A program made the translations under genes and the position numbers. From an uncultured Nitrososphaerota archaeon (GTDB lineage Archaea > Korarchaeota > Korarchaeia > Korarchaeales > Korarchaeaceae): a stretch of DNA of 64,000 nucleotides. Location of the stretch: contig CAZUBM010000002.1 in the NCBI GenBank assembly GCA_964618805.1, positions 67,013 through 131,012 of the forward strand. Direction: 5' to 3'. Each line of letters begins with the position of its first letter. Within the stretch, counting starts at the first letter, position 1. The notes under the pieces were generated by a model. The model ran no database searches, was not told where the DNA came from, and saw only the letters and a program-made list of their open reading frames with translations. This document shows positions 12,926 to 37,217 of the stretch, in pieces.

Positions 12926-14521
12926 CTATCTCCTTTTGAGGACTTTTCCAGGCTTAGCTTCAGTGTGCCTTCCCTTTTCTATCACCACTTCGCCATTGAC
13001 TAAGACGTACTCAATGCCCTCAGCATATTGATGGGGGTCTAAAAACGTGGCCTTATCTATGATTTTCTTAGGATCAAAGACAACTATATCTGCAATGAAA
13101 CCTTCCCTTATCAACCCTCTATTCAAAAGCCTTAGCCTTGTAGCTGGAGCGCTTGTCATCTTCCTTACAGCTTCTTCAAGGGTTAAAACCCTCCTTTCCC
13201 TTGAATAATATCCTAAGATCCTGGCAAAAGTTCCATAAGCCCTAGGATGGGGTCTAGTCTGTGAAAGCGGGCCGTATGGTGCAGAACAGGAGCTATCACT
13301 CCCTATGCAGGAGAGTGAATGCTTCATCACCCTAAGTAAGTCTTCTTCATGCATCCCATGGATTATGATCCCAACCCTTCCCTGGGACTTAAGCAAGAGT
13401 TCAAAGACCGTCTCATAAGGATCAAGTCCCCATGCCTTAGATACCTCTGCAATAGTCTTTCCCTGAATCGATCTATCTGGAGCATAATCAGTTATTCTAA
13501 TGATGTCATATACTTCCTTGTCCATATAATGCCCTTTCTTTACCCTTTCTTCCATATATGCCCTTATCCTCTCCCTAGTTTCTGGATCGGTAAGCCTTCT
13601 TAACATGGCATCAACCCCTCCTTCCTGCGCCCACTCCGGAATAAGGACATCAAGCCCCGTTGAGCTTGCAGTGTAAGGATAGAAGTCAAATGTCACCTCA
13701 ATTCCTCTCTCTCTAGCTTCCTCAACAATCTTACAAGTGATCTTTGTCTTTCCCCAGTTCCTTTTGCCAGAAGCCTTGAAATGGGATATCTCTACCCTGC
13801 ATTTTGATCTCTCTCCTATCTCTATAGCCTCTTTTACAGCATCTATCAGCGTATCCGACTCCCCTCTTATGTGTGAAGCGTACATCCCCCCATATTCTGA
13901 TACCACCTTACAGAGTTCTACTATCTCATCGGTCTTTGCATAGGAGCTAGGTGGATATATTAGGCCCGTTGAAAGACCGAATGCTCCAGCTTCCATTCCC
14001 TCTCTTACGTAGTCCTTCATCTCTTCAAGCTCTTCCTCTGTCGGAGGTCTGTTCTCAAATTGAAGAACATTCATTCTCACTGTTCCGTGACCAACAAAAG
14101 GAACTACATTTATGCTAATTCCTCCTTTCTGAAGCCTATTCATGTATTCTTCCATAGTTCTCCAGTCGATGCTAACATACTCTCTTATGTGATCTGGCAT
14201 TGTCCTCTCAAGATATTCTGCACTCCAATCGTTTATTGGTGCGAGGGAGTAACCGCATTGCCCTATGACTTCAGTAGTGACGCCCTGCCTTATCTTGCTC
14301 TCAGCATACGGATTAACTAACAAGCTGATGTCGCTATGTCCATGCATGTCAATGAACCCAGGACAAACCATGAGACCTGAGGCATCTATGATCACCTCAG
14401 GTTTTTCGCCCCACTCCAAGCCCACTTTAGATATTATTCCATCAGAAATGTATACATTTGAGTTAAACCAAGGTCCTCCGGTGCCATCTACGACTTTCCC
14501 CTTGACAATAGCTATTTTCAT
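12926..14521 (-). CDS. N-acyl-D-amino-acid deacylase (D-aminoacylase)
   Basis: PGFIDMHGHSD, GVTTEVIGQCG, GAFGLSTGLIYPP, SHIRGE, SHFK, IGSD and HPRAYGTF. Confidence 0.9.
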   Translation of the reverse strand: MKIAIVKGKVVDGTGGPWFNSNVYISDGIISKVGLEWGEKPEVIIDASGLMVCPGFIDMHGHSDISLLVNPYAESKIRQGVTTEVIGQCGYSLAPINDWSAEYLERTMPDHIREYVSIDWRTMEEYMNRLQKGGISINVVPFVGHGTVRMNVLQFENRPPTEEELEEMKDYVREGMEAGAFGLSTGLIYPPSSYAKTDEIVELCKVVSEYGGMYASHIRGESDTLIDAVKEAIEIGERSKCRVEISHFKASGKRNWGKTKITCKIVEEARERGIEVTFDFYPYTASSTGLDVLIPEWAQEGGVDAMLRRLTDPETRERIRAYMEERVKKGHYMDKEVYDIIRITDYAPDRSIQGKTIAEVSKAWGLDPYETVFELLLKSQGRVGIIIHGMHEEDLLRVMKHSLSCIGSDSSCSAPYGPLSQTRPHPRAYGTFARILGYYSRERRVLTLEEAVRKMTSAPATRLRLLNRGLIREGFIADIVVFDPKKIIDKATFLDPHQYAEGIEYVLVNGEVVIEKGRHTEAKPGKVLKRR

Positions 14522-14612
14522 TTTACTCAGAGTTTACAAGGAATTACTTTAATTCCTTTTCTCACGGGAAGTCAATCTTTTATGATTTACCTGAGCTAAA
14601 GGTGGAAGGCTT

Positions 14613-15731
14613 ATGAACATCAGCGTCCTAGATCTTGCGGCATCCCTAATTTCTGTAGATTCAACGAATCCTGGAGCACTTGAGTTAGAGATAGCGGATT
14701 TCTTAGGAGATGTGCTTGAAGAGCTTGGTTTTCACGTTGACAGACAGAAGTACAGCGACTTAAGGATGAATCTTTTTGCATACAAGCACCCAGAAAGAGT
14801 AAAAATACTGCTCTGTGGACACTTGGACACAGTACCCCCAGCTGAAGGGTGGAAAAGGGATCCATCTACGCCGAAGGTTGTAAGAGGAAGGCTTTATGGG
14901 CTTGGTTCATGTGACATGAAAGGAGCTATTGCTGCCATGATCGCAGCTGGATCCGAGTCGCTAAAGGAGGATGAGGAGATCGGAGTTGGCTTCTTATTCA
15001 CTTCAGATGAGGAAGTTGGTATGTCAGGGGCTAAATTTGCCGCTCCAAAAATAAGAGATGTCTTTAAAGCCCTGAAACTGTGTCTAATAGGAGAACCAAC
15101 AGATCTTAGACTAATTACTTGCCACAAAGGTGTACTCAGAGCTACTTTAAGGGTAAAAGGGGTTGCATCTCACAGCAGCATTCCTGAAAGCGGATCGAAT
15201 GCAGTTCATCATGGCATAAGGATACTCGATAAAATGTTGAGAGAAGGTGTGCCTGACTTAGAGCATCCTCTCTTGGGAAGGCCTACCCTCCAAGTCACGA
15301 TTATTAAAGGGGGAGTAGCTGAGAACATAATACCGGACAGTTTTGAGGCAAAAATAGACATGAGATTAGTTCCCCCTGAAACAGAAGAGAGCAGAAAATC
15401 TCTAATCCTGAGGATCCTTGACGAGTACGAGGAGACAGATGCAAAGGAAATGAAATTCACGCTTGCCCTTTCACCATATGAAGCTCCTCCCATACCCGAA
15501 ATTGCAACAATATCCAGAATTATGAAAAGCATGGGACTGAACTCACAACCTTCAGGAGCCCCTTATCTAACTGAAGCTCCAATTTACTGGATGCAAGGAA
15601 TTCCCTCTATTGTAATAGGACCTGGGGACATTAAATATGCTCACAAACCAGATGAGAGCGTTTACATAAGCAAACTTGCTTCAGCCAAGAAACTGTACAA
15701 GAGGCTTATACTGCTATTCAATAGTTCTTGA
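14613..15731 (+). CDS. M20-family metallopeptidase/deacylase (ArgE/DapE-like)
   Basis: GHLDTVP, GLGSCDMKGA, SDEE, GEPT and AHKPDE. Confidence 0.9.
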   Translation: MNISVLDLAASLISVDSTNPGALELEIADFLGDVLEELGFHVDRQKYSDLRMNLFAYKHPERVKILLCGHLDTVPPAEGWKRDPSTPKVVRGRLYGLGSCDMKGAIAAMIAAGSESLKEDEEIGVGFLFTSDEEVGMSGAKFAAPKIRDVFKALKLCLIGEPTDLRLITCHKGVLRATLRVKGVASHSSIPESGSNAVHHGIRILDKMLREGVPDLEHPLLGRPTLQVTIIKGGVAENIIPDSFEAKIDMRLVPPETEESRKSLILRILDEYEETDAKEMKFTLALSPYEAPPIPEIATISRIMKSMGLNSQPSGAPYLTEAPIYWMQGIPSIVIGPGDIKYAHKPDESVYISKLASAKKLYKRLILLFNSS

Positions 15732-16023
15732 ATGAAGTAAATCAGAATAACAGGATTTAAGTCAATTGAATTACAAATTGAAAGGAAAGCGTTCAAGAGA
15801 AGATTAGCTGCCTTCTTTCATCGAAGAACTCCAGTTTTGAAAAATTTTGTTTCCTAGAAAATCTCTGAAGTCCAGGCAATTAATGGTTGAATAAATTGGT
15901 AACTGATTTTTCCCTTAGTTTTCAACAATATAAGCCCCTAAGTTCTCATACTAAGAGCCTGAACTGGCAAATAATGAAGGAAAAAATGAAAAATATATTT
16001 GAAAGGAAATTCAAGAAGGTTTG

Positions 16024-17592
16024 ATGGAAGCTGAATCTGTATTCATAAACGGGAGTATATTCACGCCTCTAGGGAAAGCAGAGGCCCTTGCCATTCATTC
16101 TGGCCGAATAATGAAGGTAGGGACGAACGAGGAAATCTCCCCTCTGATAGGACCTAGAACTAAAGTGATAGATCTCAAAGGAAAAACCGTACTTCCCGGC
16201 TTAATAGATGCTCATGTCCACCTGTCTAGTTATGGTCTTGCACTAGCTCAACTTGACCTTAGGGGAACGAAATCTATCGAGGAGCTTAAGAGCATGGTGA
16301 GAAAGAGAGCTATTTCCCTATCAAAAGGAGAATGGATCCTTGGAAGGGGATGGGATCAGGAGCTATTTGAGGAGAGAAGATATCCCACTAGATGGGATTT
16401 AGATGAAGTAGCTCCGGATAACCCTGTTTTTCTAAAGAGGGTATGTGGTCACCTTTGCGTGGTCAATAGCAAAGCCCTCGAGATAGCTTCAATAACCAAG
16501 GAAACTAAGGATCCTCCTAGAGGGAAGATAGATAGGGATGAAAGTGGAGAGCCTACTGGAATCTTAAGGGAGAACGCAATAGACATTGTCTATAAGAAAA
16601 TTCCGCCTCCAAACCTAGAGCAGTTAGAAGAAGCTCTTGCAAGGGCAATAAAAGAGGCCGTAAAAAGGGGATTGACCACAATCCATTTCATATGCTCTGA
16701 CAGGTTTCCAGACGAGCTTAGAGCACTTCAACTCCTTAGAAAGGAGGGAAGGCTGCTTTTAAGGATCTATTTAATCCCTCCATATGATTTTTTGGAAAAG
16801 CTAGAGGAAATCGGCATTTTTACAGGATTTGGAGATTCCATGCTGAAGATAGGAGCAATAAAAATAATTGAAGACGGTTCCTTAGGTGGAAGGACAGCGG
16901 CTCTCGAGGAACCCTATACAGACATGCCTGATAAAAAGGGAATGCTGATTTATTCACCAGAAGAACTAAGAGAAATGGTGCTAAAGATCCATAAAGCTGG
17001 ATTTCAGGCTGCAATACACGCGATAGGTGATAGAGCCATAAGAGTTACTTTAGATGCGATAGAGAATGCAGTTAAGCTGATGCCGAGAGATCATAGGCAC
17101 AGAATTGAGCACGCATCCGTCTTAAATCCTAAACTAATTGAAAGGATGAAAAAGCTCAATGTCGTTGCTGTTTGCCAACCCCATTTCATATTTAGCGATT
17201 TTTGGGCTAAGGAAAGGGTTGGTCCTGAAAGAGCAAGGTGGGTTTATGCTCTAAAATCCTTAATGGAGAACGTAATAGTTGCAGGATCATCAGATTGTCC
17301 CGTTGAACCTATAGATCCTTTAAAGGGGATTTGGGCAGCTGTAACCAGACCATACCTTCCTGAAAACGAGAAACTGACCGTAGAGGAGGCAATAGAGATC
17401 TATACGAAAGGAGGAGCATACGCTTCCTTTGAGGAGGAAGAAAAAGGAACAATAGAGGAAGGAAAACTAGCAGATTTCATAATCCTTTCGGATGATCCCA
17501 CAAAAATCGAACCAGAGAGAATAAAGGACATCAAAGTGGAAATGACTATTGTAGGTGGAAAAGTAGTTTATGAAAGGAACAGAAGTAATTAA
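16024..17592 (+). CDS. Amidohydrolase-3 family (YtcJ-like) metal-dependent hydrolase
   Basis: PGLIDAHVH, WILGRGWD, DGSLGGRTAAL, HAIGDRA, RIEHAS and SSDCP. Confidence 0.9.
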   Translation: MEAESVFINGSIFTPLGKAEALAIHSGRIMKVGTNEEISPLIGPRTKVIDLKGKTVLPGLIDAHVHLSSYGLALAQLDLRGTKSIEELKSMVRKRAISLSKGEWILGRGWDQELFEERRYPTRWDLDEVAPDNPVFLKRVCGHLCVVNSKALEIASITKETKDPPRGKIDRDESGEPTGILRENAIDIVYKKIPPPNLEQLEEALARAIKEAVKRGLTTIHFICSDRFPDELRALQLLRKEGRLLLRIYLIPPYDFLEKLEEIGIFTGFGDSMLKIGAIKIIEDGSLGGRTAALEEPYTDMPDKKGMLIYSPEELREMVLKIHKAGFQAAIHAIGDRAIRVTLDAIENAVKLMPRDHRHRIEHASVLNPKLIERMKKLNVVAVCQPHFIFSDFWAKERVGPERARWVYALKSLMENVIVAGSSDCPVEPIDPLKGIWAAVTRPYLPENEKLTVEEAIEIYTKGGAYASFEEEEKGTIEEGKLADFIILSDDPTKIEPERIKDIKVEMTIVGGKVVYERNRSN

Positions 17593-17980
17593 CTAAGGAA
17601 AGAGATTCTCACATTTGTTCAGGCTTTGTAATGCTAAAGAAGCTCTTTCTGATAACATACTTGCTAATGAATTGGTAGTATACCTTTTTTACATGTCTGG
17701 GGGAAATATTCTAAAGGATCTCAGCGCTTGTTGGCGCAATTATCAATAAAAATTTATATTTATTCAAATTCGAATGGGACTTGCGCGATGAACCCTAAGA
17801 AAGCTATGGGAAATGCAATTTTACCTTTCAAAAAGGAAAAGCTTGAGAAGTTGGAGAATGTGAAAGTAGAAGGATCCTCAGTGGCTCATGGATCTACCGA
17901 AGCAAAGGGAAAAGATGAATGCCCTAAAGAAGTTATAAGGAGTGTTAAATTAGTAAAAATATTGTCGGGAGCTATGTAAG

Positions 17981-19459
17981 ATGCCCCATTTTTTGGTTCT
18001 TGAGAAGGATGAAATAGATCTAATTGTAAATTCTGCTCTAAGGGTACTAAATGAAGTTGGTGTTAGGGTTTACAACGACGAAGCGCTCAGGATTTACTCT
18101 GAAGGAGGAGCAGAAGTCGATTTTGAGGAGAAACTAGCTAGAATAGGAGAAGATCAGGTTAGAGATGCCCTCAGCCGAACTCGATCCTCTTTTACAATGT
18201 ACTCAAGGGACGGAAAAACGAGCTACACTGTTGGAGAGGACAACACGTACTTTATACCTGGTTCAGCTGCTATAAGAATTATAGATAGGGGGACTGGCAA
18301 AGCAAGGCCTCCTTTGGCTAAGGATTACGTGGACCTTGTACGTTTAGTAAATGGCCTTGAAAACCTAAAGTTTCAATCAACGGCCTTGATACCTTCAGAT
18401 GTCCCTAGGGAGATTGCAGACAGGTACAGGCTTTACATTGCCTTATGCAACACAAACAAGCCAATATATACCGGAACTTTCACGATAGATGGGGCTATTG
18501 ACATGAAGGACATGCTAGTAGCCGTCTCTGGCAGCGAAGAGGAGCTGGCAAAGAAGCCAAGAGCTGCTTTCACATGTTGTCCATCACCTCCACTAAAGTG
18601 GAGCAAAATAACATCTCAGAACATAATAGATTTAGCTAAGTACAACATTCCGGTATCAATACTTCCAATGCCTCTCGTAGGCTTGGCTTCTCCAGCAACC
18701 ATCGCAGGATCTCTAGTGCAACACGTAGCAGAGTTCTTTTCAGGGTTGGTTCTAGTACAACTTGTAAATCCAAGAGCTCCTGTTCTCTTCGGCGGCTCTC
18801 CAGCTCCAGTTGACCAGAGAACTGCTACCACGCTAATGGGAGCTGTTGAAACTGTCTTGATGACCTCAGCACTTTCTCAAATAGCTAGGACGTTAGGGGT
18901 TCCTACAGATATGTACGTTGGACTCAGTAACTCCAACATCCTCGACGAGCAGGCTTCTGCTGAGACGATGCTTGGCATGTCCCTAGGTGCCCTTGCTGGT
19001 ATTAACATGATAGAGGGAGCAGGAATGATTGAGTTTGAGAGTTGTCAGAGCTTTGAGAAACTGGTCGTGGACAATGAGATCGCGGGAATAGTCTATAGAT
19101 TGCTTAGAGGAATCGAGGTTAAAGAGGAATTGCTGGCACTGGACATAATTAAGGAGGTTGGAGCCGGAGGGAACTTTACGTCAAACATAAGGGCATTGAG
19201 GTTCGTTATGGAAAGGTTCAAAAAGGAGATACACATGCTTGGTCCAGTCTTCAATGTAATGGACAGGAAGGCATGGGAACTTCGTGGAGGGAAGGATGTC
19301 AACACAAAAGCAAGAGAACTAGTTAACGAACTTTTATCCAAACAAGAGCCAGATCTTCCTCCAAAGGACGTTATTCAGGAGCTTAACAAAATTATGGATA
19401 CCTCTGCTAAGAGATATGGGATCAGTTTGGACGCTTTACCTTGGAAATGCGTCGTGTAA
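17981..19459 (+). CDS. mttB: MttB-superfamily corrinoid methyltransferase, non-pyrrolysine (quaternary amine or glycine betaine type)
   Basis: ALRVLNEVGV, SPPLKW, PATIAGSLVQHVAE, QLVNPRAPVLFGG, DEQASAE, GAGMIE and VGAGGNF. No in-frame TAG. Confidence 0.85.
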   Translation: MPHFLVLEKDEIDLIVNSALRVLNEVGVRVYNDEALRIYSEGGAEVDFEEKLARIGEDQVRDALSRTRSSFTMYSRDGKTSYTVGEDNTYFIPGSAAIRIIDRGTGKARPPLAKDYVDLVRLVNGLENLKFQSTALIPSDVPREIADRYRLYIALCNTNKPIYTGTFTIDGAIDMKDMLVAVSGSEEELAKKPRAAFTCCPSPPLKWSKITSQNIIDLAKYNIPVSILPMPLVGLASPATIAGSLVQHVAEFFSGLVLVQLVNPRAPVLFGGSPAPVDQRTATTLMGAVETVLMTSALSQIARTLGVPTDMYVGLSNSNILDEQASAETMLGMSLGALAGINMIEGAGMIEFESCQSFEKLVVDNEIAGIVYRLLRGIEVKEELLALDIIKEVGAGGNFTSNIRALRFVMERFKKEIHMLGPVFNVMDRKAWELRGGKDVNTKARELVNELLSKQEPDLPPKDVIQELNKIMDTSAKRYGISLDALPWKCVV

Positions 19460-19479
19460 CCTTCATTTCGCAGCTTTCT

Positions 19480-19501
19480 ATGCTTTTTGGAGAAAAAGCA
19501 T
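19480..19501. terminator. Hairpin between convergent genes, possible bidirectional terminator
   Basis: ATGCTTTTT-GGAG-AAAAAGCAT is a perfect 9-bp inverted repeat between the 3' ends of mttB and livM. Confidence 0.5.
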
Positions 19502-19528
19502 CTTGGAAGCTTAATATGCTACTTAACT

Positions 19529-20572
19529 TCAGCTTGACTTACTTTTTTCCTTTTTGTACTTATTTAACTCTACAGTTTTGATAGGCTTCTCAGGTAATAA
19601 TCCCTCAGGCTTAAACATGAGTATGAGTATCAGGGTAAGACCTAACAGGATGTACTCAAGCCAGACTACATCGAAGGGCAGTATGGGCTCTAACCCCCTC
19701 TTATAGAATATTATCAGCCTCCTCATCACAATGAAGGTCACGGTGCCAAGGGCAACGCCCCAGTTGTTAGCCATCCCTCCAAGCACTACTATTGTCCAAG
19801 GCCAAAATGTCCAATCTACCCTATCATAAGCTATGCCAGATACGTATGTGATGTAAAACGCGTAAAGAGCTCCAGCTACTGCGGCCGTAGCTGAACTAAG
19901 AACCATTATTTTCATTCTGTAGCCAGCTACATCCTTTCCGAGGACCTCCGCAGCTATATCACAATCCCTGATGGCCTTAAGGGTTCTGCCAAGCGGGGAC
20001 TTGGTAAGTCTCTCTATGTAGGAAAACGTTCCTAATGAGATAATTATTATGACGATGGATATCCCTATAATCCTGTAGGAGCCAGCTAAAAACCTGAATG
20101 GGTCAGGGACAGTCACACCATATGGGCCACCAACCAAAGGAGCGTAGCAATAAGCTACATACCTTATTGCCTCCGCCATGGCTAGCATGAAGATAGCTAG
20201 GTGTTCTCCCTTAAGCCTGGCCACGGGATATGAAGCAAGAAAACCGAACACAGTACCTAAACCGCCAGCAACGATGAGGCTGAGCAGCAGCATAGCGGCT
20301 GCGATAGCAATGTTTTTCTGAAGGAATTTGTTTATAGTCGCCACAACTTTCGTATTATCCATTATGTAGTCGCCTTTTATTGCAAGCAAGTACATTAACA
20401 GCCTCCCAGGAATCGCCCCTATGCTGTAAGCCCCTATAGCCACTGCTCCAGCCTTTCCGAAGTCAGCTATGCCTGTGTAACCATACTCGATGTTCAGGCT
20501 TATCGAGACTATGAGATATATGGCTATAAGGGTTAGAGTATCAAGAACGAACACGATAAGGGCTGGCAACAT
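19529..20572 (-). CDS. livM: Liv-type ABC permease (LivM family)
   Basis: SLNIEYGYTGIADFG, KSPLGRTLKAIRD and VVLGGMANNWG. The start is placed at ATG 20572, which overlaps the livH stop (TAATG). Confidence 0.88.
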   Translation of the reverse strand: MLPALIVFVLDTLTLIAIYLIVSISLNIEYGYTGIADFGKAGAVAIGAYSIGAIPGRLLMYLLAIKGDYIMDNTKVVATINKFLQKNIAIAAAMLLLSLIVAGGLGTVFGFLASYPVARLKGEHLAIFMLAMAEAIRYVAYCYAPLVGGPYGVTVPDPFRFLAGSYRIIGISIVIIIISLGTFSYIERLTKSPLGRTLKAIRDCDIAAEVLGKDVAGYRMKIMVLSSATAAVAGALYAFYITYVSGIAYDRVDWTFWPWTIVVLGGMANNWGVALGTVTFIVMRRLIIFYKRGLEPILPFDVVWLEYILLGLTLILILMFKPEGLLPEKPIKTVELNKYKKEKSKSS

Positions 20573-21531
20573 TATCTGATCACTCCCTTTGCTATAGGTA
20601 TTCTGGATAGCTTGGTCATAACTACTCGCATCGCTTCGGCCCATTCTATTCCGGTGAGGCCCTCAGGAGCGAACAGAAGAGTAAGAGCTAGCATAATGAG
20701 TGGTATGACTATCCTATAGCTTAGGAACCATGGACCTACCCAAGAAGCAACAAAGTAGGTTATAAGGTACTCAGAGAGACCAGCTATGGCTCCTCCAAGC
20801 ATGGCACCGTATATGCTGTAGAATCCTCCAACTATGCTTGCTGTAAAAACGGGAACTATAAGTATAAAGCCCAAGCAAGGACTTCCCCTGAAATAGAAGG
20901 GAAGGAGGGCACCTGATATTCCAGCTAAACCTCCTGACAATATCCAAGAGACTGTGTACACAAGTTCCGTATTCACACCAAATGTGCTGGCCAAATCAGG
21001 ATTTTCTATTGTAGCTCTCATGGCTACACCAAATCTTGTTTTAGTGAGTAATATGTGAAGTGTAGCTACGAAAAGGGTCACACTTAAGATTGAGGAAATA
21101 AAGACGCCTGGTTGGCCTAGGAACTCGAAGTCATATGCCTTAAAAGGCATAAATCCCCTTGCCTTTATCTTATATACCCTAGTAAGCACGTCTGCGTATA
21201 TATTTAGGACAGCAAAGATCAGCATATCGTAGCCAAGCGTAGCTATCATGAGGTGGTCTATTGAGGCTTCTCTATTCATCAAAGGCTTGATAATGAACTT
21301 GTAAAGGGCTAAAGAGGCGAGAGCGCTGAGTAAGAAGGCCAAAGGGAGGCAATAATAGGGGTTCATGCCAAACAACTTCAGCGTAGTCAGTGCAACGAAG
21401 AGCCCTATGACAGCTATCTCTCCATGAGCAAAGTTAGGTACCTTTGTTGTTATGTAGGTTAACGTTAGCCCCGTACTCAGTAATATTAGCATGCAAGAGT
21501 AGGTTATAGCATCCCTAAGTAGTACCCACAA
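20572..21531 (-). CDS. livH: Liv-type ABC permease (LivH family)
   Basis: GLTLTYITTKVPNFAHGE and TRFGVAMRATIENPDLA. Confidence 0.9.
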   Translation of the reverse strand: MWVLLRDAITYSCMLILLSTGLTLTYITTKVPNFAHGEIAVIGLFVALTTLKLFGMNPYYCLPLAFLLSALASLALYKFIIKPLMNREASIDHLMIATLGYDMLIFAVLNIYADVLTRVYKIKARGFMPFKAYDFEFLGQPGVFISSILSVTLFVATLHILLTKTRFGVAMRATIENPDLASTFGVNTELVYTVSWILSGGLAGISGALLPFYFRGSPCLGFILIVPVFTASIVGGFYSIYGAMLGGAIAGLSEYLITYFVASWVGPWFLSYRIVIPLIMLALTLLFAPEGLTGIEWAEAMRVVMTKLSRIPIAKGVIR

Positions 21532-21714
21532 GAGCCTCCCAAATCCATCGATTAAAGCATGCTTTTAAGTATTTCGTGTACCTAAGAGCTGGCAGATGCT
21601 GATAACTTGTTTTCTTGAGCACGAAAGCGCTCATTTAATGATTAGTAAAGAAATTTAACTAAATCTCGGTAAGTCTTTTAATGTTGTAGATTTTCTCTTT
21701 CAGTAGGTGAGAGC

Positions 21715-23010: not shown

Positions 23011-23037
23011 GGCTCCAACCCTTTCTTCTTTTTTGCG

Positions 23038-23805: not shown

Positions 23806-23868
23806 GATGAAATGCGATTGTGGTAGGATCATAATCCTAAAGGATTGGAGGCAGGTGGTTAAGGAAGC

Positions 23869-24585: not shown

Positions 24586-24645
24586 ACTTGTGGACAATAA
24601 TGTCTTTTTTACTCAGATTCATCATAGTAATTATCGAACTTCTGC

Positions 24646-28622: not shown

Positions 28623-28628
28623 TTTACA

Positions 28629-29531: not shown

Positions 29532-30514
29532 TCATATCTTATTCTTGGATCTATGAACCCATAGATCACATCGATTATGAAGAGAGCAATCACTACGCAA
29601 AGTGATGTGATAAAGAAACCGGCCTGCAGCAGAGGATAGTCCCTATTCATAACCGCCTGATAAAGCAGCGTTCCCATGCCAGGCAGTCCAAAAACGGTCT
29701 CAGTTAACACAGCACCACTTACAGCAAACCCTAGATTTATGCCGGTATTTGTTACGATTGGCAAGATTGCATTTCTGAATGCGTGCTTTGCGATTATCTT
29801 CCAGCCTGATACGCCTTTTGCTTTAGCTGTCAGTATATAAGGCTCACCTAAAGTCTCTAGCATGGAACTTCTCATGAGGAGAATTGTGCTAGTCATGTAG
29901 AATACTACGAGAGTAACGAGGGGAAGGAAGTAATGCCAAATTATGTCTTTTATCTTTTCAAAAGGACTTAGATATATTTTTCCTGGAGTGATAGCCCCGC
30001 TTAGGGGAAACAAGTCAAAATGATATGAGAAAACGAGTATGAGAATCATACCAACCCAAAAAGCAGGGAGAGATCTGGAAGCTAACGCAGCTGTTGTAAT
30101 AGCTAGATCTTTTCCTCCACCTTTCCAAGCTGCGTACATTCCAATGAGAACTCCTATAGAGGTGGAAATCGCTATAGTAAGAAAGAGAAGGAATAAAGAC
30201 CATGGTAGATTTCTTTTTATGACACTCGAAACTGGTTCTGGGTAAAAGGTGTATGAGATCCCAAATTCTAAATGTATGAGGTTGAACAAATAATCCTTAA
30301 ATTGCTCCCATAAGGGCTTGTTAAGCCCGTATATCTCTAGCATTTTCTGTCTAAAGCTAGGGGTTAATCTAGGATCTCCCGTAAACCTAGTTATTGGACT
30401 GCCTGGCATTGCTCTTGGCAAGACAAAATTAAGGATAATAAGCACGATGAGAATTAGAAATGCCCTAAATGCTCTTCTAACGAAGTACTTCCCACTGATT
30501 CTCAAGAAAACCAC
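29528..30514 (-). CDS. oppB: Oligopeptide ABC permease (OppB/DppB)
   Basis: PRAMPGSP, YILTAKAKG, HAFRNA, ETVFGLPGMG, RDYP and DPRIR. Confidence 0.92.
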   Translation of the reverse strand: MVFLRISGKYFVRRAFRAFLILIVLIILNFVLPRAMPGSPITRFTGDPRLTPSFRQKMLEIYGLNKPLWEQFKDYLFNLIHLEFGISYTFYPEPVSSVIKRNLPWSLFLLFLTIAISTSIGVLIGMYAAWKGGGKDLAITTAALASRSLPAFWVGMILILVFSYHFDLFPLSGAITPGKIYLSPFEKIKDIIWHYFLPLVTLVVFYMTSTILLMRSSMLETLGEPYILTAKAKGVSGWKIIAKHAFRNAILPIVTNTGINLGFAVSGAVLTETVFGLPGMGTLLYQAVMNRDYPLLQAGFFITSLCVVIALFIIDVIYGFIDPRIRYE

Positions 30515-30537
30515 CTAAAAAAGGAGGAGAGGGAGGG

Positions 30538-32268
30538 TTATTTTTTCCTCGTTGCAAGAACTATTCCAGCTATTATAACAATGATCGCAATCACAATTAG
30601 GCCATAGATCCACGTTGGAATTACTTTCTTTACCTCTACTACGGGCTTTGTGACAACCTCTCCTTTAAGATGCAGGTGAGTCCAAGTGTAATAGTTATTA
30701 TATCCGTATCCCATTACAAAGGTCCAGCCTTCGAATTGATCTATCCTATAAGCAAATGTGTCATAGTCATGAACAAGTGTGTAATAAGGTAATCCCTTCG
30801 CTATGAGTTCTTGCATCTTAAAGACTTGTTCTCTCCTCTTTTGAGGGTCAAATGTCCTCGTCCATTCCTCTGTTACTTTCAAAAACTCTTTGGCATACTC
30901 GTCATGCCACCAAATCTCTGAATTCGATCCGTTCTCTATTACGAAAATACCTCGTAAATCAGCTGGAGAATGGACCCTCCATCCACCTATGAAAAGCCAC
31001 CACTTCGTCGGATCTTCTTTTCCGCTAAAGAGCGTTCTCCATTCCATCGTTTCGATGCTTATTTTTATGCCAACCTTTGCTAGATCCTCTTGCATGAGCT
31101 CAGCTGCTCTTACCCTTAGAGGATCTGGACCTATCCAAACCGAGAAATCAAGCTTTGTACCATTAGGAGTCTCTCTGATTCCATCACCGTCTCTATCTAT
31201 GAAGTTAAGCCCATCAAGTATTTCTTTAGCCTTGTCAGGGTTGTAATCATACATATCTTGAATGTCTTTGTTAAGCCAATACTCGAAAACCGTTGGCAGG
31301 AAGCCTGGATTACCTGGCGATGCATAGCCAGAATATGCAACTTCGGCTATTTCCTTGGTATCAATGGCGTATGCCATGGCCTGCCTGAATTTAGTAAGAT
31401 TTGTTGGATATCTTAGGTTATTGAATGCAAGCTGGACTATGTGAGTGCTGTTTCTTACAGATATCTTGATGTTGGGATCTGCGCTTACTCTTGCCACCTC
31501 TGCTGCATCTATTGTGCACAAGTCTATCTCATTTTTGAGTAGAGCGAGAGTTATCGTTCCTCTAGGAACGATCTTTATGAGAATTTCATCTATATATGGT
31601 CTTCCATATGAGTAGTTCTCATAAGCCTTTAACTTAATGTATTGTTTTGGAACTCTCTCAACTAGTTGAAATGGTCCTCCTCCTATTATAGGAGCTGGAT
31701 TCTCAAACTCTTCAGGGTTCTCTATATCTTTCCAGATGTGCTCTGGTATAATATATGGCCAGTCCATCCAAGGATTGTCTATTATGTTTGCGTCTGGTTC
31801 CTTGAAGTAAAACGTAATAGTGTAATTGTCAGGCGTTTCAATCCTCTCTATGTTATCGGTGATTGAGGTAAGAAATCCGTGTTTTGCTGCGTATTCAAAT
31901 GTAAATCTTACATCCTTAGAAGTTATGGGTGTCCCATCGTGCCATGTCGCGTTCTCCACTAAATGAAACGTAATGGACTTACCATCTGGAGAAACTTCCC
32001 AGCTTTTCGCTAGATCCCCATGAGGCAGTCCGTCCGGACCGGTTCTAGTCATACATGGATAAATCATTCTCATAAGATCAAAATCCTGTATTAGGCTCAC
32101 TAAGAACGGATTTGTAGTGGTTACATCCGTTGAATATGCTAACCTTAATGTGCCACCTCTCCTTATCTCCCCTTCTTGCGCCCTTAGAGCTATGTTCGCG
32201 GGAATTAAGAGCGCAAACAAAGTTAAGAATACAATATATTTTAAGATACCACGAAATGCGGCCTGCAT
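30538..32268 (-). CDS. oppA: Oligopeptide ABC substrate-binding protein (family 5) with C-terminal membrane anchor
   Basis: LAKSWEVSPDG, ATWHDGTPITSKDVRFT, GGGPF and DRDGDGIRE. C-terminal TM helix plus RKK. Start placed at ATG 32268, with a TATA-like TTTATAA about 30 nt upstream. Confidence 0.9.
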   Translation of the reverse strand: MQAAFRGILKYIVFLTLFALLIPANIALRAQEGEIRRGGTLRLAYSTDVTTTNPFLVSLIQDFDLMRMIYPCMTRTGPDGLPHGDLAKSWEVSPDGKSITFHLVENATWHDGTPITSKDVRFTFEYAAKHGFLTSITDNIERIETPDNYTITFYFKEPDANIIDNPWMDWPYIIPEHIWKDIENPEEFENPAPIIGGGPFQLVERVPKQYIKLKAYENYSYGRPYIDEILIKIVPRGTITLALLKNEIDLCTIDAAEVARVSADPNIKISVRNSTHIVQLAFNNLRYPTNLTKFRQAMAYAIDTKEIAEVAYSGYASPGNPGFLPTVFEYWLNKDIQDMYDYNPDKAKEILDGLNFIDRDGDGIRETPNGTKLDFSVWIGPDPLRVRAAELMQEDLAKVGIKISIETMEWRTLFSGKEDPTKWWLFIGGWRVHSPADLRGIFVIENGSNSEIWWHDEYAKEFLKVTEEWTRTFDPQKRREQVFKMQELIAKGLPYYTLVHDYDTFAYRIDQFEGWTFVMGYGYNNYYTWTHLHLKGEVVTKPVVEVKKVIPTWIYGLIVIAIIVIIAGIVLATRKK

Positions 32269-32699
32269 TAATTGAAAGAACGCCAAAAAGATCTTATAAA
32301 TTTTTGCAAAAGAGAGGTCTAGTACATTAATCTCCATAGCATTATCATAACCAATCTACTTTCTTATTACGAATTTACCACTTTTTCTTAATTAATCAGG
32401 GCACACAAGAGATTTTACCACTAAATCTTACTTAATGGAATCACTCCCTTTATTCCATCTTTTTAAATAGAGGGATGGTATTCAACTATTTGAGAATGCT
32501 TAAAAGAGATAAGCCATGGCGAAGTTAAACTAGGGTGTGTTGAGGTAGTCTTAAAAACATTTTGTAGTCTACGGTTAAACGTATTGCAATCTGTGTTAAA
32601 AATGAAAGTAAATACTATCTTAGCAACAAAGACTGGCAAAAAATGGTTGAGAAAAGGGTTAGGTTTTATTAAAGCAGGCATACCTATTTGTTGACCATT

Positions 32700-34007
32700 A
32701 TGTTAGGGAGCATAATTAAGGATTACGTTTCTAAGACTGGTACTTCGAAATTCCTTTTTGAAAGGGCAAAGAGGATCATTCCAGGAGGAGAAACCTATCA
32801 AATCAGGCTATTTGAACCCTATCCCTTTTATTCAGCAAGCGCTAAAGGAGCTAAGCTTATAGATGTGGATGGAAACGAGTACATTGACTTTTGGCTTGGC
32901 CATTACTCATTGATTTTAGGTCATGGACATCCTGAAGTGATTAAGGCTGTAAAAGAGCAGTTAGAAAAGACTCAGCACTTTGGGACTCCTCATGAACTTG
33001 AGATAAAGCTAGCTGAGCAGGTAGTTAAAATGGTTCCATCTGTTGAGATGGTTAGGTTCTCAAATACTGGGACGGAGGCCATCATGTACAGCGTTCGCTT
33101 AGCTAGGAGCTATACAAAGAGGGATAAGATAGCTAAGTTTGAAGGGGGATGGCATGGGGGATATGATGCGGTCCATGTAGGAGTAAAACCTCCCCTTGAT
33201 CAGCCCATGTCCTCTGGTCTAACCGAAGGAGTCCTAAAGGATACGGTAGTGCTGCCCTATAATAACTTAGAAACAGCTGAAAAGACGATAAAGAGAGAGA
33301 AGCTGGCATGTGTCATAATCGAACCGATGTTAGGGGCAGGAGGGGGAATCCCGGCCGATAGGGAGTTTCTAAAAGGGCTTAAGGAACTTTGCGAAGATCA
33401 TGGAACTCTCCTCGTTTTTGATGAGGTAATAACTGGATTTAGGATTTCTCCTGGAGGAATGCAGGAATACTACGGGATTCTTCCTGATCTAACGATTATG
33501 GGGAAGATTCTAGGCGGAGGATTTCCCATAGGTGCAATTGGAGGAAAAAAAGAGATAATGGAGCTCATGAATCCTATCGGGAAGGAGAGGAAAGATGTTT
33601 CTTTTCATGGCGGGACTTTTTGCGGGAATCCTGTATCCATGATAGCTGGTCTAACTACTTTAAAGATGTTAGAAGATGGATCTATTCAGAAGGATCTTAA
33701 TTCAAAGGGAGAAAAGATAAGATCCGAACTCCTAGACGTATTTGAGAGTAAAGAAATTGACGTATTTATGGGTGGTCTTGGATCTATAATATCAGTTCAC
33801 TTCACCAAAGAGGAAGTGAGGGATATAAGAGCTGCCTTCAGGGCTGATAGAAAAAGACTCCTGGAGTATCACCTCTATTTGATAAGCAGGGGAATTTTCT
33901 TCCTTCCAGGACACATTGGGGCCCTTTGTATTGCCCATACAGAGGAGCATTTCGATAAGCTCATTAAGTGTGCTGAGGACTATGCCAAACTCATTTCCGG
34001 CAAATAA
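32700..34007 (+). CDS. Class-III PLP aminotransferase, HemL/GSA-aminomutase-like paralog
   Basis: DVDGNEYID, RFSNTGTEA, KFEGGWHG, FDEVITGFR and MGKILGGG. It has GGETYQIR where canonical HemL has GGVNSPVR. Confidence 0.85.
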   Translation: MLGSIIKDYVSKTGTSKFLFERAKRIIPGGETYQIRLFEPYPFYSASAKGAKLIDVDGNEYIDFWLGHYSLILGHGHPEVIKAVKEQLEKTQHFGTPHELEIKLAEQVVKMVPSVEMVRFSNTGTEAIMYSVRLARSYTKRDKIAKFEGGWHGGYDAVHVGVKPPLDQPMSSGLTEGVLKDTVVLPYNNLETAEKTIKREKLACVIIEPMLGAGGGIPADREFLKGLKELCEDHGTLLVFDEVITGFRISPGGMQEYYGILPDLTIMGKILGGGFPIGAIGGKKEIMELMNPIGKERKDVSFHGGTFCGNPVSMIAGLTTLKMLEDGSIQKDLNSKGEKIRSELLDVFESKEIDVFMGGLGSIISVHFTKEEVRDIRAAFRADRKRLLEYHLYLISRGIFFLPGHIGALCIAHTEEHFDKLIKCAEDYAKLISGK

Positions 34008-34052
34008 CAGTGGATTCCAAGAGTTACATGGGTGAATTAAGCATTCTGGCAG

Positions 34053-34508
34053 GTGATATGCATGATAAATCCTGAGTTCTTTGACTTGCAGATTTATTCG
34101 ATATATAAAGCAGTTTCCGAGATCCTTGGCAAAGATGCATGGAAAATCGTTTGGAGATCAGGAGAAATATTGTTAGATGAGCTTTGGGGAGAACTTGAGT
34201 TGGAAAAGGAAGATGTTCTTCTAGCACTAAGGAAGATTGCAGCCTATCTTAAAAGAGCTGGTTACATATCTGACATAAGAATTGAGGTTGAAAAAGAGGG
34301 AGAGATCTTAAGATATGAGATGACAGAGCCCGTCATAGCGAGAGGGGCCAAAAAGCTGATTGAGGAAGGACTAGTTCCTCCACACATATCTACTAGCCTA
34401 ATGTTTGCTTTGCTTAAGAGAAAGGGATTTGTAGCTGAGATGATAGGGAACCCAGAGTTCCTTGAGGATGGAAGAGTGGTAGAAAGATGGCATCTGAAGG
34501 AGATGTAA
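34053..34508 (+). CDS. Hypothetical protein, possibly a V4R/H-NOX/Bet3-like ligand-binding fold
   Basis: Tightly coupled between the aminotransferase and thrC, with a GGTGA RBS. Helical N-terminus (LGKDAWKIVWRSGE) followed by an alpha/beta half. The fold call is inference. Confidence 0.7.
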   Translation: MICMINPEFFDLQIYSIYKAVSEILGKDAWKIVWRSGEILLDELWGELELEKEDVLLALRKIAAYLKRAGYISDIRIEVEKEGEILRYEMTEPVIARGAKKLIEEGLVPPHISTSLMFALLKRKGFVAEMIGNPEFLEDGRVVERWHLKEM

Positions 34509-34509
34509 C

Positions 34510-35757
34510 ATGAAAAGCCTTTTTACACATTTGGAGTGTCTTAGTTGCGGTAGAAGATATCCTAAAGGTGAATATTACCTCTGTCCAAGATGTAATGGCT
34601 TTTTGGATCCTAAGTATGATTATGATGCCATTGCAGAAGAGTTTGACCCGGAAAAGTTGCCATTCAGACCCCACAACATCTGGAAGTGGAAAGAGTTCCT
34701 TCCTATTGAGAAGGAAGAGAACATAGTTACGCTCGGAGAGGGAGACACCCCTCTGCTAAGGTGCAAAAGGATAAATGAGGAAATTGGCGTAAGAAACCTG
34801 TATCTAAAGGATGAAACGGTAAATCCAACGGGATCCCTTAAGGACAGATCTACTTCAGTGAACGCGAGTATTGCAAAAGAATTAAACGTAAATACCGTTG
34901 CAATAATATCAACAGGCAATGCTGGAGCCTCTTTGGCCGCTTATGCTGCCAGAGGTGGCCTCAAATCAATAATAATGGTCCCAGAAACCACTCCAGAGGA
35001 AAAAATTGCACAGACCCTTGCTTATGGGGCCATTGTTATTAAAGTAAGAGCAAAATCCATGAACGACTTTTATTGGCTATATAGAGAAGCATGCTCGAAG
35101 TTCGGCTGGATGGACTCGGTTGGAGGGGTTAATCCTTATCGAAACGAGGGAAAGAAAACTTACGCTTATGAAATCAGCTTATCTTTCGATTGGAATCCAC
35201 CTGAGTGGATTATTATGCCTATGGCTGGAGGAAATGCGATAATAGCTGCTTGGAAGGGGTTTAAAGAACTTTTTTCATTAGGATTAATATCTAAAATGCC
35301 TAAAATAGTTGGAGTTCAGCCAAGGGAATGCGCTCCGATAGTAAAAGCCTTTAGAGATGGTAAAGAGATAGCAGAGCCTATATCTCCTGGTCAAACAATG
35401 GTTTCGAGTTTAGTAGTTCCAAATCCAGGACCTAAGAGCGCTCTTGTCCTTAAAGCTATAAGAGAATCAAAAGGAACATGCGATGATCCAACTGACGAAG
35501 AAGTCTTAGAAGCAATGAGATTATTGGCAAGGGAAGGCATATTTTCGGAGCCCGGGGGAGCAATAAGCCTAGCTGCAGCAAAGAGATTGGTGGAACAGGG
35601 CTTAATAGATCCTTCAGATAAGGTAGTATGTCTTATCACTGGAAGCGGCTTTAAGGACATGAAATCTTTTGAGAAGATATTGAGCAAGCCCTTTCTGTCA
35701 GATCCTACTTTAGAGGCTCTTGAGAGAGTTTTAAAAGAAAATTTACTCCATGTCTAG
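34510..35757 (+). CDS. thrC: Threonine synthase family PLP enzyme
   Basis: N-terminal CxxC...CPxC, TLGEGDTPL, KDETVNPTGSLKDR, STGNAG, EGKKT and LITGSGFKD. Confidence 0.88.
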   Translation: MKSLFTHLECLSCGRRYPKGEYYLCPRCNGFLDPKYDYDAIAEEFDPEKLPFRPHNIWKWKEFLPIEKEENIVTLGEGDTPLLRCKRINEEIGVRNLYLKDETVNPTGSLKDRSTSVNASIAKELNVNTVAIISTGNAGASLAAYAARGGLKSIIMVPETTPEEKIAQTLAYGAIVIKVRAKSMNDFYWLYREACSKFGWMDSVGGVNPYRNEGKKTYAYEISLSFDWNPPEWIIMPMAGGNAIIAAWKGFKELFSLGLISKMPKIVGVQPRECAPIVKAFRDGKEIAEPISPGQTMVSSLVVPNPGPKSALVLKAIRESKGTCDDPTDEEVLEAMRLLAREGIFSEPGGAISLAAAKRLVEQGLIDPSDKVVCLITGSGFKDMKSFEKILSKPFLSDPTLEALERVLKENLLHV

Positions 35758-35852
35758 AGACATTGCTTTTCTCTTTGGAACAAAGTAGCTTCTACAATCA
35801 TCAAGAGGGATCTGCAGTAAAATGTTAGAAGGTTATACCGAGATCCGCGTTA

Positions 35853-37217
35853 ATGCGTGCCCATCCTTATATTACTAAGAGACTTGTAGCAATGATTAGT
35901 AGGATGGGAGAAGAAGGATTCTGTAAAAGAGCTAATCTCAAAGTAAATAAACTTGGGCACCTTTGCATGAGGGATCACGACTTAGTGAACCTTGCTGATC
36001 GTTTTGGAACTCCCTTATACGTGGTTGATGCTCAAAGGATAAGAGAAAACTTTAGGAGGTTTAGAAATGCCCTTGCTCAATATCCTAAAGTTCTCATAGC
36101 TTATGCATATAAAGCAAACCCTAATCTAGCTGTATGCTCCATTCTCAGGAAGGAGGGAGCAGGGGCAGAAGTAGTTTCTGGCGGGGAGCTTTACATAGCT
36201 CTGAAGGTGGGGGTGAATCCTGAGGATATTGTGTTCGATGGAGTGAGCAAGGAAGAAGCTGAGTTAGAGGTGGCAATAGAGAATGAAATTGGAGCGATAA
36301 ATGTGGAATCCCTGGAAGAACTTAGAAAAATTGAGGAAATAGCATCTGAAATGGGTAAAAAGGCGAATATTGGTGTGAGATTAAATCCAGATGTTCCAGT
36401 AAAGGCCCATCCTCATGACGTGACAGGGATCAAATCCTCAAAATTCGGACTAGATTTTGAAAAGGCACTTAAAGCATACGAGATAGCTAGGAGAATGAAT
36501 CATATCGATATAAGAGGGATCCACATGCACATAGGTTCACAAATAACCGAAATAAGCTCGTTTAAAGATGCAGCTCTAAGACTTTTCGATTTCATATCGA
36601 AACTAAAAGAGATGAAAATTGCTTTAGATTACATAGACTTCGGAGGCGGACTTGGCGTATCTTACAGTGACCCCAGAGAGGATTACCTTAAGGAGTATGC
36701 AAGCGTTTTGCTTAATATAGTTAAGGTAAAGATAAAGGAACTTGATCTTGGCGAGCCAAGACTTGTATTTGAGCCAGGAAGGTATTTAGTAGCTGATTCT
36801 TCAGTCCTCCTCACCAAAGTTAACTATACAAAGGAGATTTTTGGAAAGAGATGGGTCCTTGTCGATGCAGGGATGAATGATTTCATGAGGCCGGCTTTTT
36901 ATGGAGCTTATCATGAGATAATACCTGTAAATAAAGCCTCTAGACCTAAGAGTAAGAAATATAATGTAGGAGGACCGATATGCGAGAGTTCTGATGTCTT
37001 CAGATATGGCGTTGAGTTGCCAGAGATTAGACAAGGCGATCTTCTAGCTATTCTGGACGTTGGTGCATACGGCATATCCATGTCAAATCAGTACAACGCG
37101 AGACCAAGGCCTGCTATGGTTCTAATAGATGGATCAAGAGTAGCCATAATAAGAGAACGTGAATCGTATGTAGATCTGATCTCTAAAGACAGGGTTCCTG
37201 AGTGGATAGACTCTTAA
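35853..37217 (+). CDS. lysA: Diaminopimelate decarboxylase
   Basis: FGTPLYV, YAYKAN, SKFG, HMHIGSQ, DFGGG, EPGRY, GPICESSD, GAYG and NQYNARP. The true start may lie a few codons downstream. Confidence 0.92.
   Translation: MRAHPYITKRLVAMISRMGEEGFCKRANLKVNKLGHLCMRDHDLVNLADRFGTPLYVVDAQRIRENFRRFRNALAQYPKVLIAYAYKANPNLAVCSILRKEGAGAEVVSGGELYIALKVGVNPEDIVFDGVSKEEAELEVAIENEIGAINVESLEELRKIEEIASEMGKKANIGVRLNPDVPVKAHPHDVTGIKSSKFGLDFEKALKAYEIARRMNHIDIRGIHMHIGSQITEISSFKDAALRLFDFISKLKEMKIALDYIDFGGGLGVSYSDPREDYLKEYASVLLNIVKVKIKELDLGEPRLVFEPGRYLVADSSVLLTKVNYTKEIFGKRWVLVDAGMNDFMRPAFYGAYHEIIPVNKASRPKSKKYNVGGPICESSDVFRYGVELPEIRQGDLLAILDVGAYGISMSNQYNARPRPAMVLIDGSRVAIIRERESYVDLISKDRVPEWIDS

Follow-up and report, generated by a model that had tools for sequence, protein, structure and literature searches.

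Can an archaeon with no murein wall of its own live on the walls of bacteria, and draw lysine from them? The question is raised by a window of 64,000 nucleotides (the whole stretch of DNA analysed here, C2:67013-131012) in the genome of an uncultured archaeon of the Korarchaeaceae, which we call G000 (2.18 Mb in 62 contigs, estimated to be 93.7% complete with 3.4% contamination). Positions 12926-37217 of this window carry dacB, for a DD-carboxypeptidase/endopeptidase, together with an Opp-type peptide importer, a group of amidohydrolase and peptidase genes, and lysA, for meso-diaminopimelate (meso-DAP) decarboxylase. An earlier note on this DNA had read the span as a system for scavenging bacterial peptidoglycan. 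On balance we favour the view that the genus, which has neither such a wall nor DAP synthesis, has assembled a toolkit, largely of bacterial-type genes, for eating fragments of bacterial murein. The organism probably feeds on bacterial cell-wall fragments, and it may obtain lysine that way. The salvage idea therefore survives at the level of the organism, with DacB and LysA as likely players and with independent support from a second locus, on contig C19. The limits that had been drawn for the system were wrong, and the part given to Opp is unproven.

Genomes were compared in nested sets: the genus (n=5, G000 and its sisters G001, G002, G003 and G004), the relatives (n=21, including the out-group G020), the class (n=40) and the species genomes of the phylum (n=43). 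A Pfam scan covered 55 frames of the window, and the cut-offs of named models (NCBIfam, TIGR/PRK) were used for family calls. The genes listed by the earlier note (dacB, opp, lysA, D-aminoacylase, M20, amidohydrolase and Liv) are real, all being open frames with strong family matches. Its observation that the window holds no other dap or mur gene is borne out across the 55 frames scanned.

The lysA gene and the missing DAP route

The peptide branch of the proposed route would end at lysA (35853-37217, plus strand), which starts 3.5 kb past the start of oppA, as had been reported. Its product scores 507.2 bits against the meso-DAP decarboxylase model TIGR01048, for which the cut-off is 297.9. 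It aligns with the LysA of M. jannaschii (1TUF/1TWI) at 378 bits over residues 35-450, including the conserved blocks, and with D-ornithine/D-lysine decarboxylase at only about 197 bits. The gene is above the cut-off in all five genomes of the genus. Outside the genus its nearest labelled relatives are archaeal metagenome-assembled genomes (MAGs), for example Bathyarchaeota BA1 at 53% and Hadesarchaea at 46-49%. Judged by these relatives, the lysA found here is of archaeal type and was not recently acquired.

The search for a DAP or LysW route in the whole genome, which the earlier note had proposed, came out as its salvage idea would have it. In the five genus genomes asd was never over its cut-off, where the same search detected it in 14 of 14 control genomes, and ddh gave weak N-terminal matches only (30-38 bits against a cut-off of 180.6). 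Among the 21 relatives, dapB passed in one genome, the out-group G020; the best match in G000 (34.5 bits) is an Ord-like dehydrogenase. The dapF gene was found in two of these 21 genomes, G002 and G020, and not in G000, where a tblastn search with the G002 DapF gave no match. LysW had no match anywhere in G000. The cut-off for DapL (364.7) was reached in none of the 21 genomes, which does not prove its absence.

Three candidates for the missing steps were set aside. The best DapL match in G000 (156.4 bits) also occurs in genomes without lysA, and we therefore read it as a general aminotransferase. A LysX-like ATP-grasp gene on contig C21 falls short as a sign of the aminoadipate route (202.8 against 275.6 bits), LysW being absent from the G000 matches. 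The only dapA-like gene (243.9 bits) was read as belonging to a different pathway, since it clusters with a gene resembling YgeW or N-acetylornithine carbamoyltransferase, a LysA paralogue and SsnA. This cluster lies on contig C16 (L011:9645-15852), has a LysA paralogue of 266 bits, under the cut-off, and is also present in G003. Next to it are genes for a BrxL-like Lon protease and for a HepT toxin, and it probably serves some catabolic pathway with no relation to DAP.

No complete DAP pathway was found in the same genome as lysA, and lysA is an orphan terminal enzyme because the rest of the pathway was not found. Since asd, dapB and ddh were not found in the genus, the substrate of LysA would have to come from outside, which leaves the identification of the enzyme itself untouched. 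Many archaea use the DAP route, and the presence of lysA in an archaeon does not in general imply salvage, as the earlier note had taken it to do. Here the gene is of the archaeal type and is an orphan only by the absence of the other steps.

Variation of the locus within the genus

Two blocks of genes are always neighbours within the genus. One consists of the genes for a D-aminoacylase, an M20 peptidase and an amidohydrolase (amidohyd3b), and the other of hyp151, thrC, lysA and a MetE-like gene. The stretches between and inside these blocks differ from genome to genome. In G003 the amidohydrolase gene is followed directly by hyp151-thrC-lysA, and in G001 by a small gene, hyp161, and dacB, inside which the contig ends. 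G002 has a dapF gene (255.7 bits against 114.65) between the M20 gene and amidohyd3b, and a different Opp operon with a class-III aminotransferase gene ahead of hyp151-thrC. In both G002 and G004 an S66 peptidase gene stands between thrC and lysA, head-to-head with lysA. The two S66 peptidases match PF02016 at 125.6-125.7 bits against a cut-off of 25, and their best named model is muramoyltetrapeptide carboxypeptidase (LdcA), at 146.6 and 150.3 bits, below its cut-off of 378.

Three genes concerned with wall peptides or DAP (dacB, the S66 gene and dapF) have landed at one locus by the orphan lysA, in different members of the genus. The window is thus a variable locus in which wall-related cassettes have been gained and lost, and not an operon, and it holds most of the peptide branch. 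The span flagged earlier does not stand as one system: dacB and the opp genes are convergent, dacB occurs in 2 of the 43 phylum genomes, and the span includes a unit of MttB-like and Liv genes (17981-24585) that looks like a bystander cassette, inserted between the amidohydrolase gene and hyp161-dacB and without a tie to the wall. We judge this unit a bystander because in G001 amidohyd3b is followed directly by hyp161-dacB, and in G003 directly by hyp151-thrC-lysA.

The DacB peptidase and the adjacent importer

The product of dacB (25241-26680, plus strand) belongs to the S13 family of DD-carboxypeptidases/endopeptidases of the DacB/PBP4 type, scoring 382.7 bits against PF02113 (cut-off 22.8) and, over its full length, 342.3 bits against TIGR00666 (cut-off 107.8). 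Its three penicillin-binding motifs are complete: SxxK as S80-N-L-K83, SxN as S319-D-N321 and KTG as K425-T-G427. They align with those of its best solved relative, PBP4a of B. subtilis (1W5D, 275.8 bits). The enzyme would be expected to hydrolyse the D-Ala-D-Ala and D-Ala-meso-DAP bonds of muropeptides. The membrane anchor that had been claimed for it would correspond to residues 9-27 or thereabouts, a stretch that is hydrophobic as judged by hydropathy only; the N-terminal flank of the G000 protein has no positive charge. In the G001 copy Arg residues precede the stretch, and in Desulfurococcales relatives a stalk rich in Ser and Thr comes after the anchor. It is likely that DacB is anchored in the membrane, and it may lie on its outer side.

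A search for related loci with the single DacB protein returned no relative, and a search with a seven-row alignment returned 80 loci. Only four of the 80 carry archaeal labels, and one of these four is G001's own contig. A FastTree tree was built from 45 rows, the 30 best matches and 15 lower-ranked taxon-labelled ones, the other 75 listed matches being left out; in it the DacB clade comprises seven rows, four with archaeal labels, nested among bacterial sequences.

Tail to tail with dacB lie oppF, oppD, oppC, oppB and oppA (26674-32337, minus strand; ABC_tran with oligo_HPY twice, BPD_transp_1 twice, SBP_bac_5). They encode a complete Opp/Dpp-type ABC importer, with a binding protein, two permeases and two ATPases with the oligo_HPY tail. 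The best named model for OppA is Opp4A, at 213.9 bits against a cut-off of 650, and the named-model scan gave no match to any MppA-specific model. We regard this Opp as a candidate importer of stem peptides or muropeptides. The overlap between dacB and the end of a complete oppABCDF, to which the earlier note drew attention, is real and measures seven bases. Since dacB and oppF are convergent, they cannot share a transcript.

G000 has only four Opp-type permease loci among about 2170 called frames, and the direct adjacency of dacB to one of them is therefore unlikely to be due to chance; counted after the fact, about 8 in 2170 genes would directly abut such a locus. In G001 the neighbour on that side is not visible, the contig ending inside dacB. 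Synteny of dacB and opp among relatives, which the earlier note had proposed as a test, did not appear, the neighbours being different at three other archaeal loci of the same DacB clade. In the Desulfurococcales-labelled L067, DacB is preceded by GH18, an SBP_bac_5 ABC set and GH3, with opp within 3 kb. The likewise Desulfurococcales-labelled L099 has Opp-type permeases about 3 kb from DacB. L028 has a C26 peptidase and an AsnC regulator near DacB, and no opp in its 5.7 kb. The dacB-opp pairing is not conserved, and a functional tie between the two is plausible but not shown. At L067 (1369-11359) the GH18, SBP_bac_5 ABC and GH3 hydrolase genes stand together with an S13 peptidase that has an anchor and a long Ser/Thr-rich stalk, and this set may be another archaeal locus for wall fragments or chitin oligomers.

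Candidate hydrolases for D-residues

On the other side of dacB lies a conserved triad of hydrolase genes. The first (12926-14521, minus strand; PF07969) encodes an amidohydrolase of the D-aminoacylase (N-acyl-D-amino-acid deacylase) family, whose best solved relative is the N-acyl-D-glutamate deacylase 3GIP (289 bits), followed by the D-aminoacylase 1M7J (273 bits). In the alignments its HxH, Cys, His, His and Asp positions, which we take to be the metal ligands, are identical to those of the solved enzymes. It is a candidate for cleaving bonds to D-residues, such as that between L-Ala and D-Glu. The family is found in five of the 40 class genomes, all of them of this genus, with four to six matches per genome and four paralogues in G000.

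The second gene (14613-15731, plus strand; PF01546 and M20_dimer) encodes an M20 hydrolase of the ArgE/DapE family, which falls just below the cut-off of the TIGR01910 subfamily (210.2 against 217.6 bits) and matches the E. coli ArgE at 125 bits and DapE at about 100 bits. It adjoins the D-aminoacylase gene in G001 and G002 too. The enzyme is a candidate for releasing DAP that is bound through an N-acyl or gamma-glutamyl link; cleavage of gamma-D-Glu-meso-DAP is suggested only because the bond chemically resembles that of N-succinyl-DAP. The third gene, amidohyd3b (16021-17592, plus strand), encodes an Amidohydro_3 metal hydrolase (PF07969, 447 bits) whose best solved relative is the uncharacterized hydrolase 3ICJ. 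Copies 71-83% identical lie at the same position in G001, G002 and G003.

Elsewhere in the genomes, the D-aminopeptidase DppA is present in all five members of the genus. About 29 kb before the window, at C2:36311-38182 of G000 (L025:4312-6183), a frame of 623 amino acids fuses an Asp-type racemase (TIGR00035, 274.4 bits against 93.1) to an archaeal-type aspartate aminotransferase. It adjoins a D-aminoacylase paralogue, an M24 peptidase and a class-V aminotransferase, and is matched by frames of 630 and 631 amino acids in G002 and G004. Such a fusion would channel D-Asp directly into transamination. Two class-III aminotransferases of G000, resembling that beside lysA in G002, were considered for the racemization of D-Ala and rejected, as they match the acetylornithine-aminotransferase-family model and not the racemase models.

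A second locus on contig C19

Independent support comes from contig C19 of G000, where eight genes lie together: NamZ (GH171, with both domains present, NamZ_N at 265.5 and NamZ_C at 178 bits), NagZ (PRK05337, 225.1 bits against 207), a beta-lactamase-fold protein, a HAD hydrolase, a BadF-type kinase (NagK-like, 113 bits), MurQ, a regulator-like gene and GlmS. NamZ matches its B. fragilis homologue 4K05 at 253 bits. MurQ passes both TIGR00274 (314.1 bits against 302) and PRK05441 (366.7 against 168), and its frame is intact, the TGA flagged by the search being its own stop codon. The best model for the beta-lactamase-fold protein is PBP4B, at 208.5 bits against 385. Its position between NagZ and the kinase-MurQ pair suggests that it may be an amidase of the type of AmiE, which we assume to belong to the PBP4B/beta-lactamase fold. 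G002 has all eight in the same order, at 69-92% identity, and MurQ is over its cut-off in G000, G001 and G002, which are also the only three such genomes among the 43 of the phylum. Judged by family membership, the cluster would be the sugar branch of murein breakdown. Homologues of MurQ at 55-66% identity are labelled as many archaeal MAG groups, and the gene is widely annotated in databases.

The recurrence of these genes bears on whether they belong to the archaeon at all. They could have come from mis-binned bacterial contigs, as the 62 contigs and 3.4% estimated contamination of G000 and the nesting of the DacB clade among bacterial sequences might suggest, or they could serve a murein-like wall of the archaeon's own. 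We find both of these very improbable. Each of the two loci reappears with the same genes in other members of the genus. The contigs with the wall-related loci also carry lysA, with its archaeal nearest labelled relatives, and an archaeal-type uracil-DNA glycosylase (NF040953, 270.1 bits against 250). The nearest relatives of MurQ, DacB and LysA have archaeal labels; those of G000 proteins are labelled Thermoproteota and Thermoprotei and, for MurQ (90% identity), Candidatus Korarchaeota. Mur_ligase_M was found in none of the five genus genomes, with a control detection in 12 of 14 known genomes. Since this ligase family was not found, the organism would build no murein wall of its own, and the process would be catabolic scavenging and not recycling.

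How far such an organism could attack a wall was judged from the lytic families. The earlier note had pointed to amidases and muramidases as genes to be sought; Amidase_2, Amidase_3, SLT and GH25 were each found in none of the five genus genomes. By eye, no signal peptide is apparent at the N-termini of the three hydrolases of C19. With no lytic families and no signal peptides, the cell would be expected to use imported fragments and not intact sacculi.

The same result bears on the possibility that DacB is a weapon, a surface DD-endopeptidase that weakens the walls of neighbouring bacteria, with nutrition secondary. Among its weak solved matches are the Bdellovibrio DacB-like proteins 5CER (36.8 bits) and 5CEC (30 bits), which presumably have a predatory role. 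Archaeal peptidoglycan hydrolases that kill bacteria were demonstrated in 2025, in a study whose relevant passages leave open competition versus scavenging, that is, whether bacteria or free peptidoglycan serve as a resource (PMC12352652). A weapon would, however, be expected to be released, and DacB appears to be anchored to the membrane of its producer. The genome also holds downstream catabolic steps that a pure weapon would not need, and lacks matches to all four lytic families. We therefore regard DacB as a weapon as improbable.

Proposed route and ordinary peptide scavenging

If the genes are read as a toolkit for murein fragments, the route might run as follows. Anchored at the surface, DacB would trim terminal D-Ala and cut D-Ala-meso-DAP cross-links in soluble wall fragments, and its products would be taken in by an Opp-type ABC importer, for which the adjacent opp is the candidate. 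In the cytoplasm, NagZ, NamZ and the PBP4B/AmiE-like protein would strip off N-acetylglucosamine (GlcNAc), N-acetylmuramic acid (MurNAc) and peptide, and the BadF-type kinase and MurQ would convert MurNAc to GlcNAc-6-phosphate, if each has the activity of its family. The stem peptide would be dismantled by the D-aminoacylase-family amidohydrolases, the M20 ArgE/DapE-like hydrolase and DppA, and in the sisters also by the S66 LD-carboxypeptidase. LysA would then turn the freed meso-DAP, for which no other source was found, into L-lysine. The genes give partial support to a breakdown of bacterial murein by an archaeon that would end in the salvage of lysine. A stronger statement would be that the genus lives partly on murein and draws its lysine from bacterial DAP, having lost the aspartate-semialdehyde trunk and the earlier DAP steps, kept LysA, and gathered DD- and LD-carboxypeptidases, DapF, D-peptide hydrolases and NamZ-NagZ-MurQ. 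We hold this to be possible, if doubtful.

Several observations weigh against a murein-eating toolkit. Some concern the single genes: the S66 peptidases stay below the cut-off of their named model, in a family that also includes MccF (microcin immunity), and neither they nor DapF were found in G000 itself. The PBP4B-like protein is likewise below the PBP4B cut-off, and only the general Beta-lactamase family passes. DppA is whole in the other four genus genomes and in G000 lies in three pieces on one strand (C20:744-1527, L112), which could reflect either a pseudogene with frameshifts or faulty assembly. Others concern distribution and arrangement: MurQ is in three of the five genus genomes, dacB only in G000 and G001, dacB and opp are convergent, and the neighbours vary among L067, L099 and L028. 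Any attack on intact sacculi would depend on exo-enzymes that have no signal peptide, the lytic families being missing. The genomes compared are 71-94% complete. Window positions 25241-34000 are present in three listed sequencing runs, all of DNA and labelled hydrothermal vent metagenome, one of which may be the source, and no RNA run is listed as holding them. Lastly, a sister genus likewise has lysA but neither dapB nor dapF, in two genomes that are 99% complete. MurQ, DacB and the D-aminoacylase family are all missing from this sister genus, so the orphan state of lysA must be older than the toolkit and could have another explanation; its context there (PhoU, AOR and ABC genes) is uninformative.

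The explanation that these points would favour is ordinary scavenging of peptides and amino acids by a peptide fermenter, in which DacB is a stray horizontal gain, lysA a relic or an enzyme for another substrate, and the adjacency of the genes meaningless. The window is indeed rich in peptide and amino-acid genes, with two Liv sets, TldD/PmbA, two AOR genes and a CN hydrolase. The sporadic dacB, the turnover of cassettes at the locus, the toolkit-less sister genus with its orphan lysA, and an OppA without a match to a specific named model would all fit. This explanation is nevertheless strained by three results. First, dacB, the S66 gene and dapF came to the same locus in different genomes of the genus, with S66 directly abutting lysA. 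Second, unless murein sugars are used, there is no easy explanation for the separate cluster of NamZ, NagZ and MurQ. Third, lysA is retained throughout the genus with its conserved blocks intact. We consider ordinary scavenging unlikely, and continue to favour a toolkit for murein fragments.

Neighbouring genes

The remaining genes of the span are conserved or variable neighbours. Divergent from dacB is hyp161 (24646-25131, minus strand), a small protein, hydrophobic at its N-terminus, that matched nothing in Pfam or NCBIfam; a 63% identical copy also adjoins dacB in G001. An atlas look-up, to be taken as a lead only, gave a DUF4352-like hit with a high score. Upstream of lysA stand hyp151 (34053-34508) and, directly after it, thrC (34510-35757), both on the plus strand. 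ThrC scores 348.2 bits against PRK08197 (cut-off 303), and hyp151, of 151 amino acids, has no family; its atlas look-up, again only a lead, gave RdxA_C or ATC_hydrolase with a very high score. The hyp151-thrC-lysA block is conserved in G001-G004 as well, and its first two genes are probably not part of wall scavenging. With thrC, lysA and the MetE-like gene (34510-38443 together), the final enzymes for threonine, lysine and methionine are encoded side by side, although asd was not found in the genus.

A HemL-like aminotransferase gene (32688-34007) lies between oppA and hyp151, and the MetE-like gene (37322-38443) is followed by cysS. The MttB-like methyltransferase gene (17981-19459) scores 360.3 bits, below the pyrrolysine-type cut-off of 525, and together with the adjoining Liv-type ABC set (19529-24585) may serve quaternary-amine uptake and demethylation. 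Of the two Liv importers that the earlier note had counted, this is the one within the flagged span; the second set (4605-9341) lies outside it. About 5 kb past lysA there is a set of MoxR (AAA_3) and DUF58 genes (41686-45214). A similar set, AAA_3 with DUF4350, lies just before the S13 gene at L099:5420-9678, which is probably a coincidence. An Rfam search of the window gave no match.

Relation to known systems and significance

One familiar process is the recycling of murein peptides in E. coli, which proceeds by import through Opp/MppA, cleavage by LdcA and MpaA, and reuse via Mpl. The genus shares with it DD-peptidases, an importer of the Opp type and, in G002 and G004, a candidate LD-carboxypeptidase. 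Unlike E. coli, no Mpl or other Mur ligase and no AmpD-type amidase was found in the genus, and the end point here would be lysine and central metabolism, not new wall.

The sugar branch resembles the B. subtilis operon murQ-murR-murP-amiE-nagZ-namZ, which the main text of its description presents as stripping off GlcNAc, peptide and MurNAc and converting MurNAc-6-phosphate to GlcNAc-6-phosphate (PMC8054146). The logic of C19 would be the same, with NamZ, NagZ and MurQ clustered and a beta-lactamase-fold protein in the place of AmiE. The differences are that the phosphotransferase-system transporter MurP is missing here, with a BadF-type kinase in its place, that the three hydrolases have no signal peptide (as read by eye) whereas those of B. 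subtilis are secreted, and that the products could not return to the wall of a host without Mur ligases. The same paper records NamZ from several phyla of bacteria, and nowhere in its main text is the term archaea used.

An archaeal precedent exists for the peptide branch. Pab87, a D-peptidase of P. abyssi, has a gene that adjoins those for a D-aminoacylase, a dipeptide ABC transporter and a pyridoxal-phosphate aminotransferase, and in the passages on its role the authors proposed in 2009 the use of bacterial cell debris (PMC2651629). As described there, it is an archaeal peptidase of the penicillin-recognizing fold with DD-carboxypeptidase activity on muropeptides and with gene neighbours similar to those found here. 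Pab87 is a cytoplasmic CubicO S12 octamer, whereas the enzyme described here belongs to S13 and is predicted to be membrane-anchored and to face outward. The present genus would in addition have the sugar branch of NamZ, NagZ and MurQ and an orphan lysA leading from DAP to lysine.

Another wall-less consumer with PBP4B-like, NamZ, MurQ and lysA genes is found among anaerobic ciliates, which according to the sections describing them owe pbp4b, namZ, anmK, murQ, nagB and lysA to lateral transfer; in the authors' reading, the amino-sugar enzymes gained in this way make up a complete peptidoglycan-degrading pathway (PMC13198582). Ciliates are phagotrophs that engulf bacteria, whereas an archaeon must process fragments outside the cell and import them. 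The lysA of the ciliates was acquired, in contrast to the archaeal-type gene described here.

In the literature searched, which did not extend to subscription journals, we found nothing that links MurQ, NamZ or the salvage of lysine from DAP to archaeal genomes, and the main text of a 2026 comparative paper on Korarchaeota (supplements aside) contains none of the terms looked for. If the reading given here is true, it would represent a near-complete archaeal route for consuming the bacterial cell wall, of a kind not described in the literature so covered. In sediments and vents, bacterial wall debris makes up a large share of the organic matter, and one that turns over slowly; it contains muramic acid, D-amino acids and DAP, and its consumers are poorly known. 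Since genes for both branches lie in one archaeal lineage, those of the sugar branch leading to MurQ and those of the peptide branch to the orphan LysA, the question becomes testable. The reading, if true, would also mean that an archaeon depends for an amino acid on bacterial necromass or on bacterial neighbours. That the amino-acid supply of this archaeon may hang on bacteria in this way bears on cultivation, for example by feeding murein or DAP.

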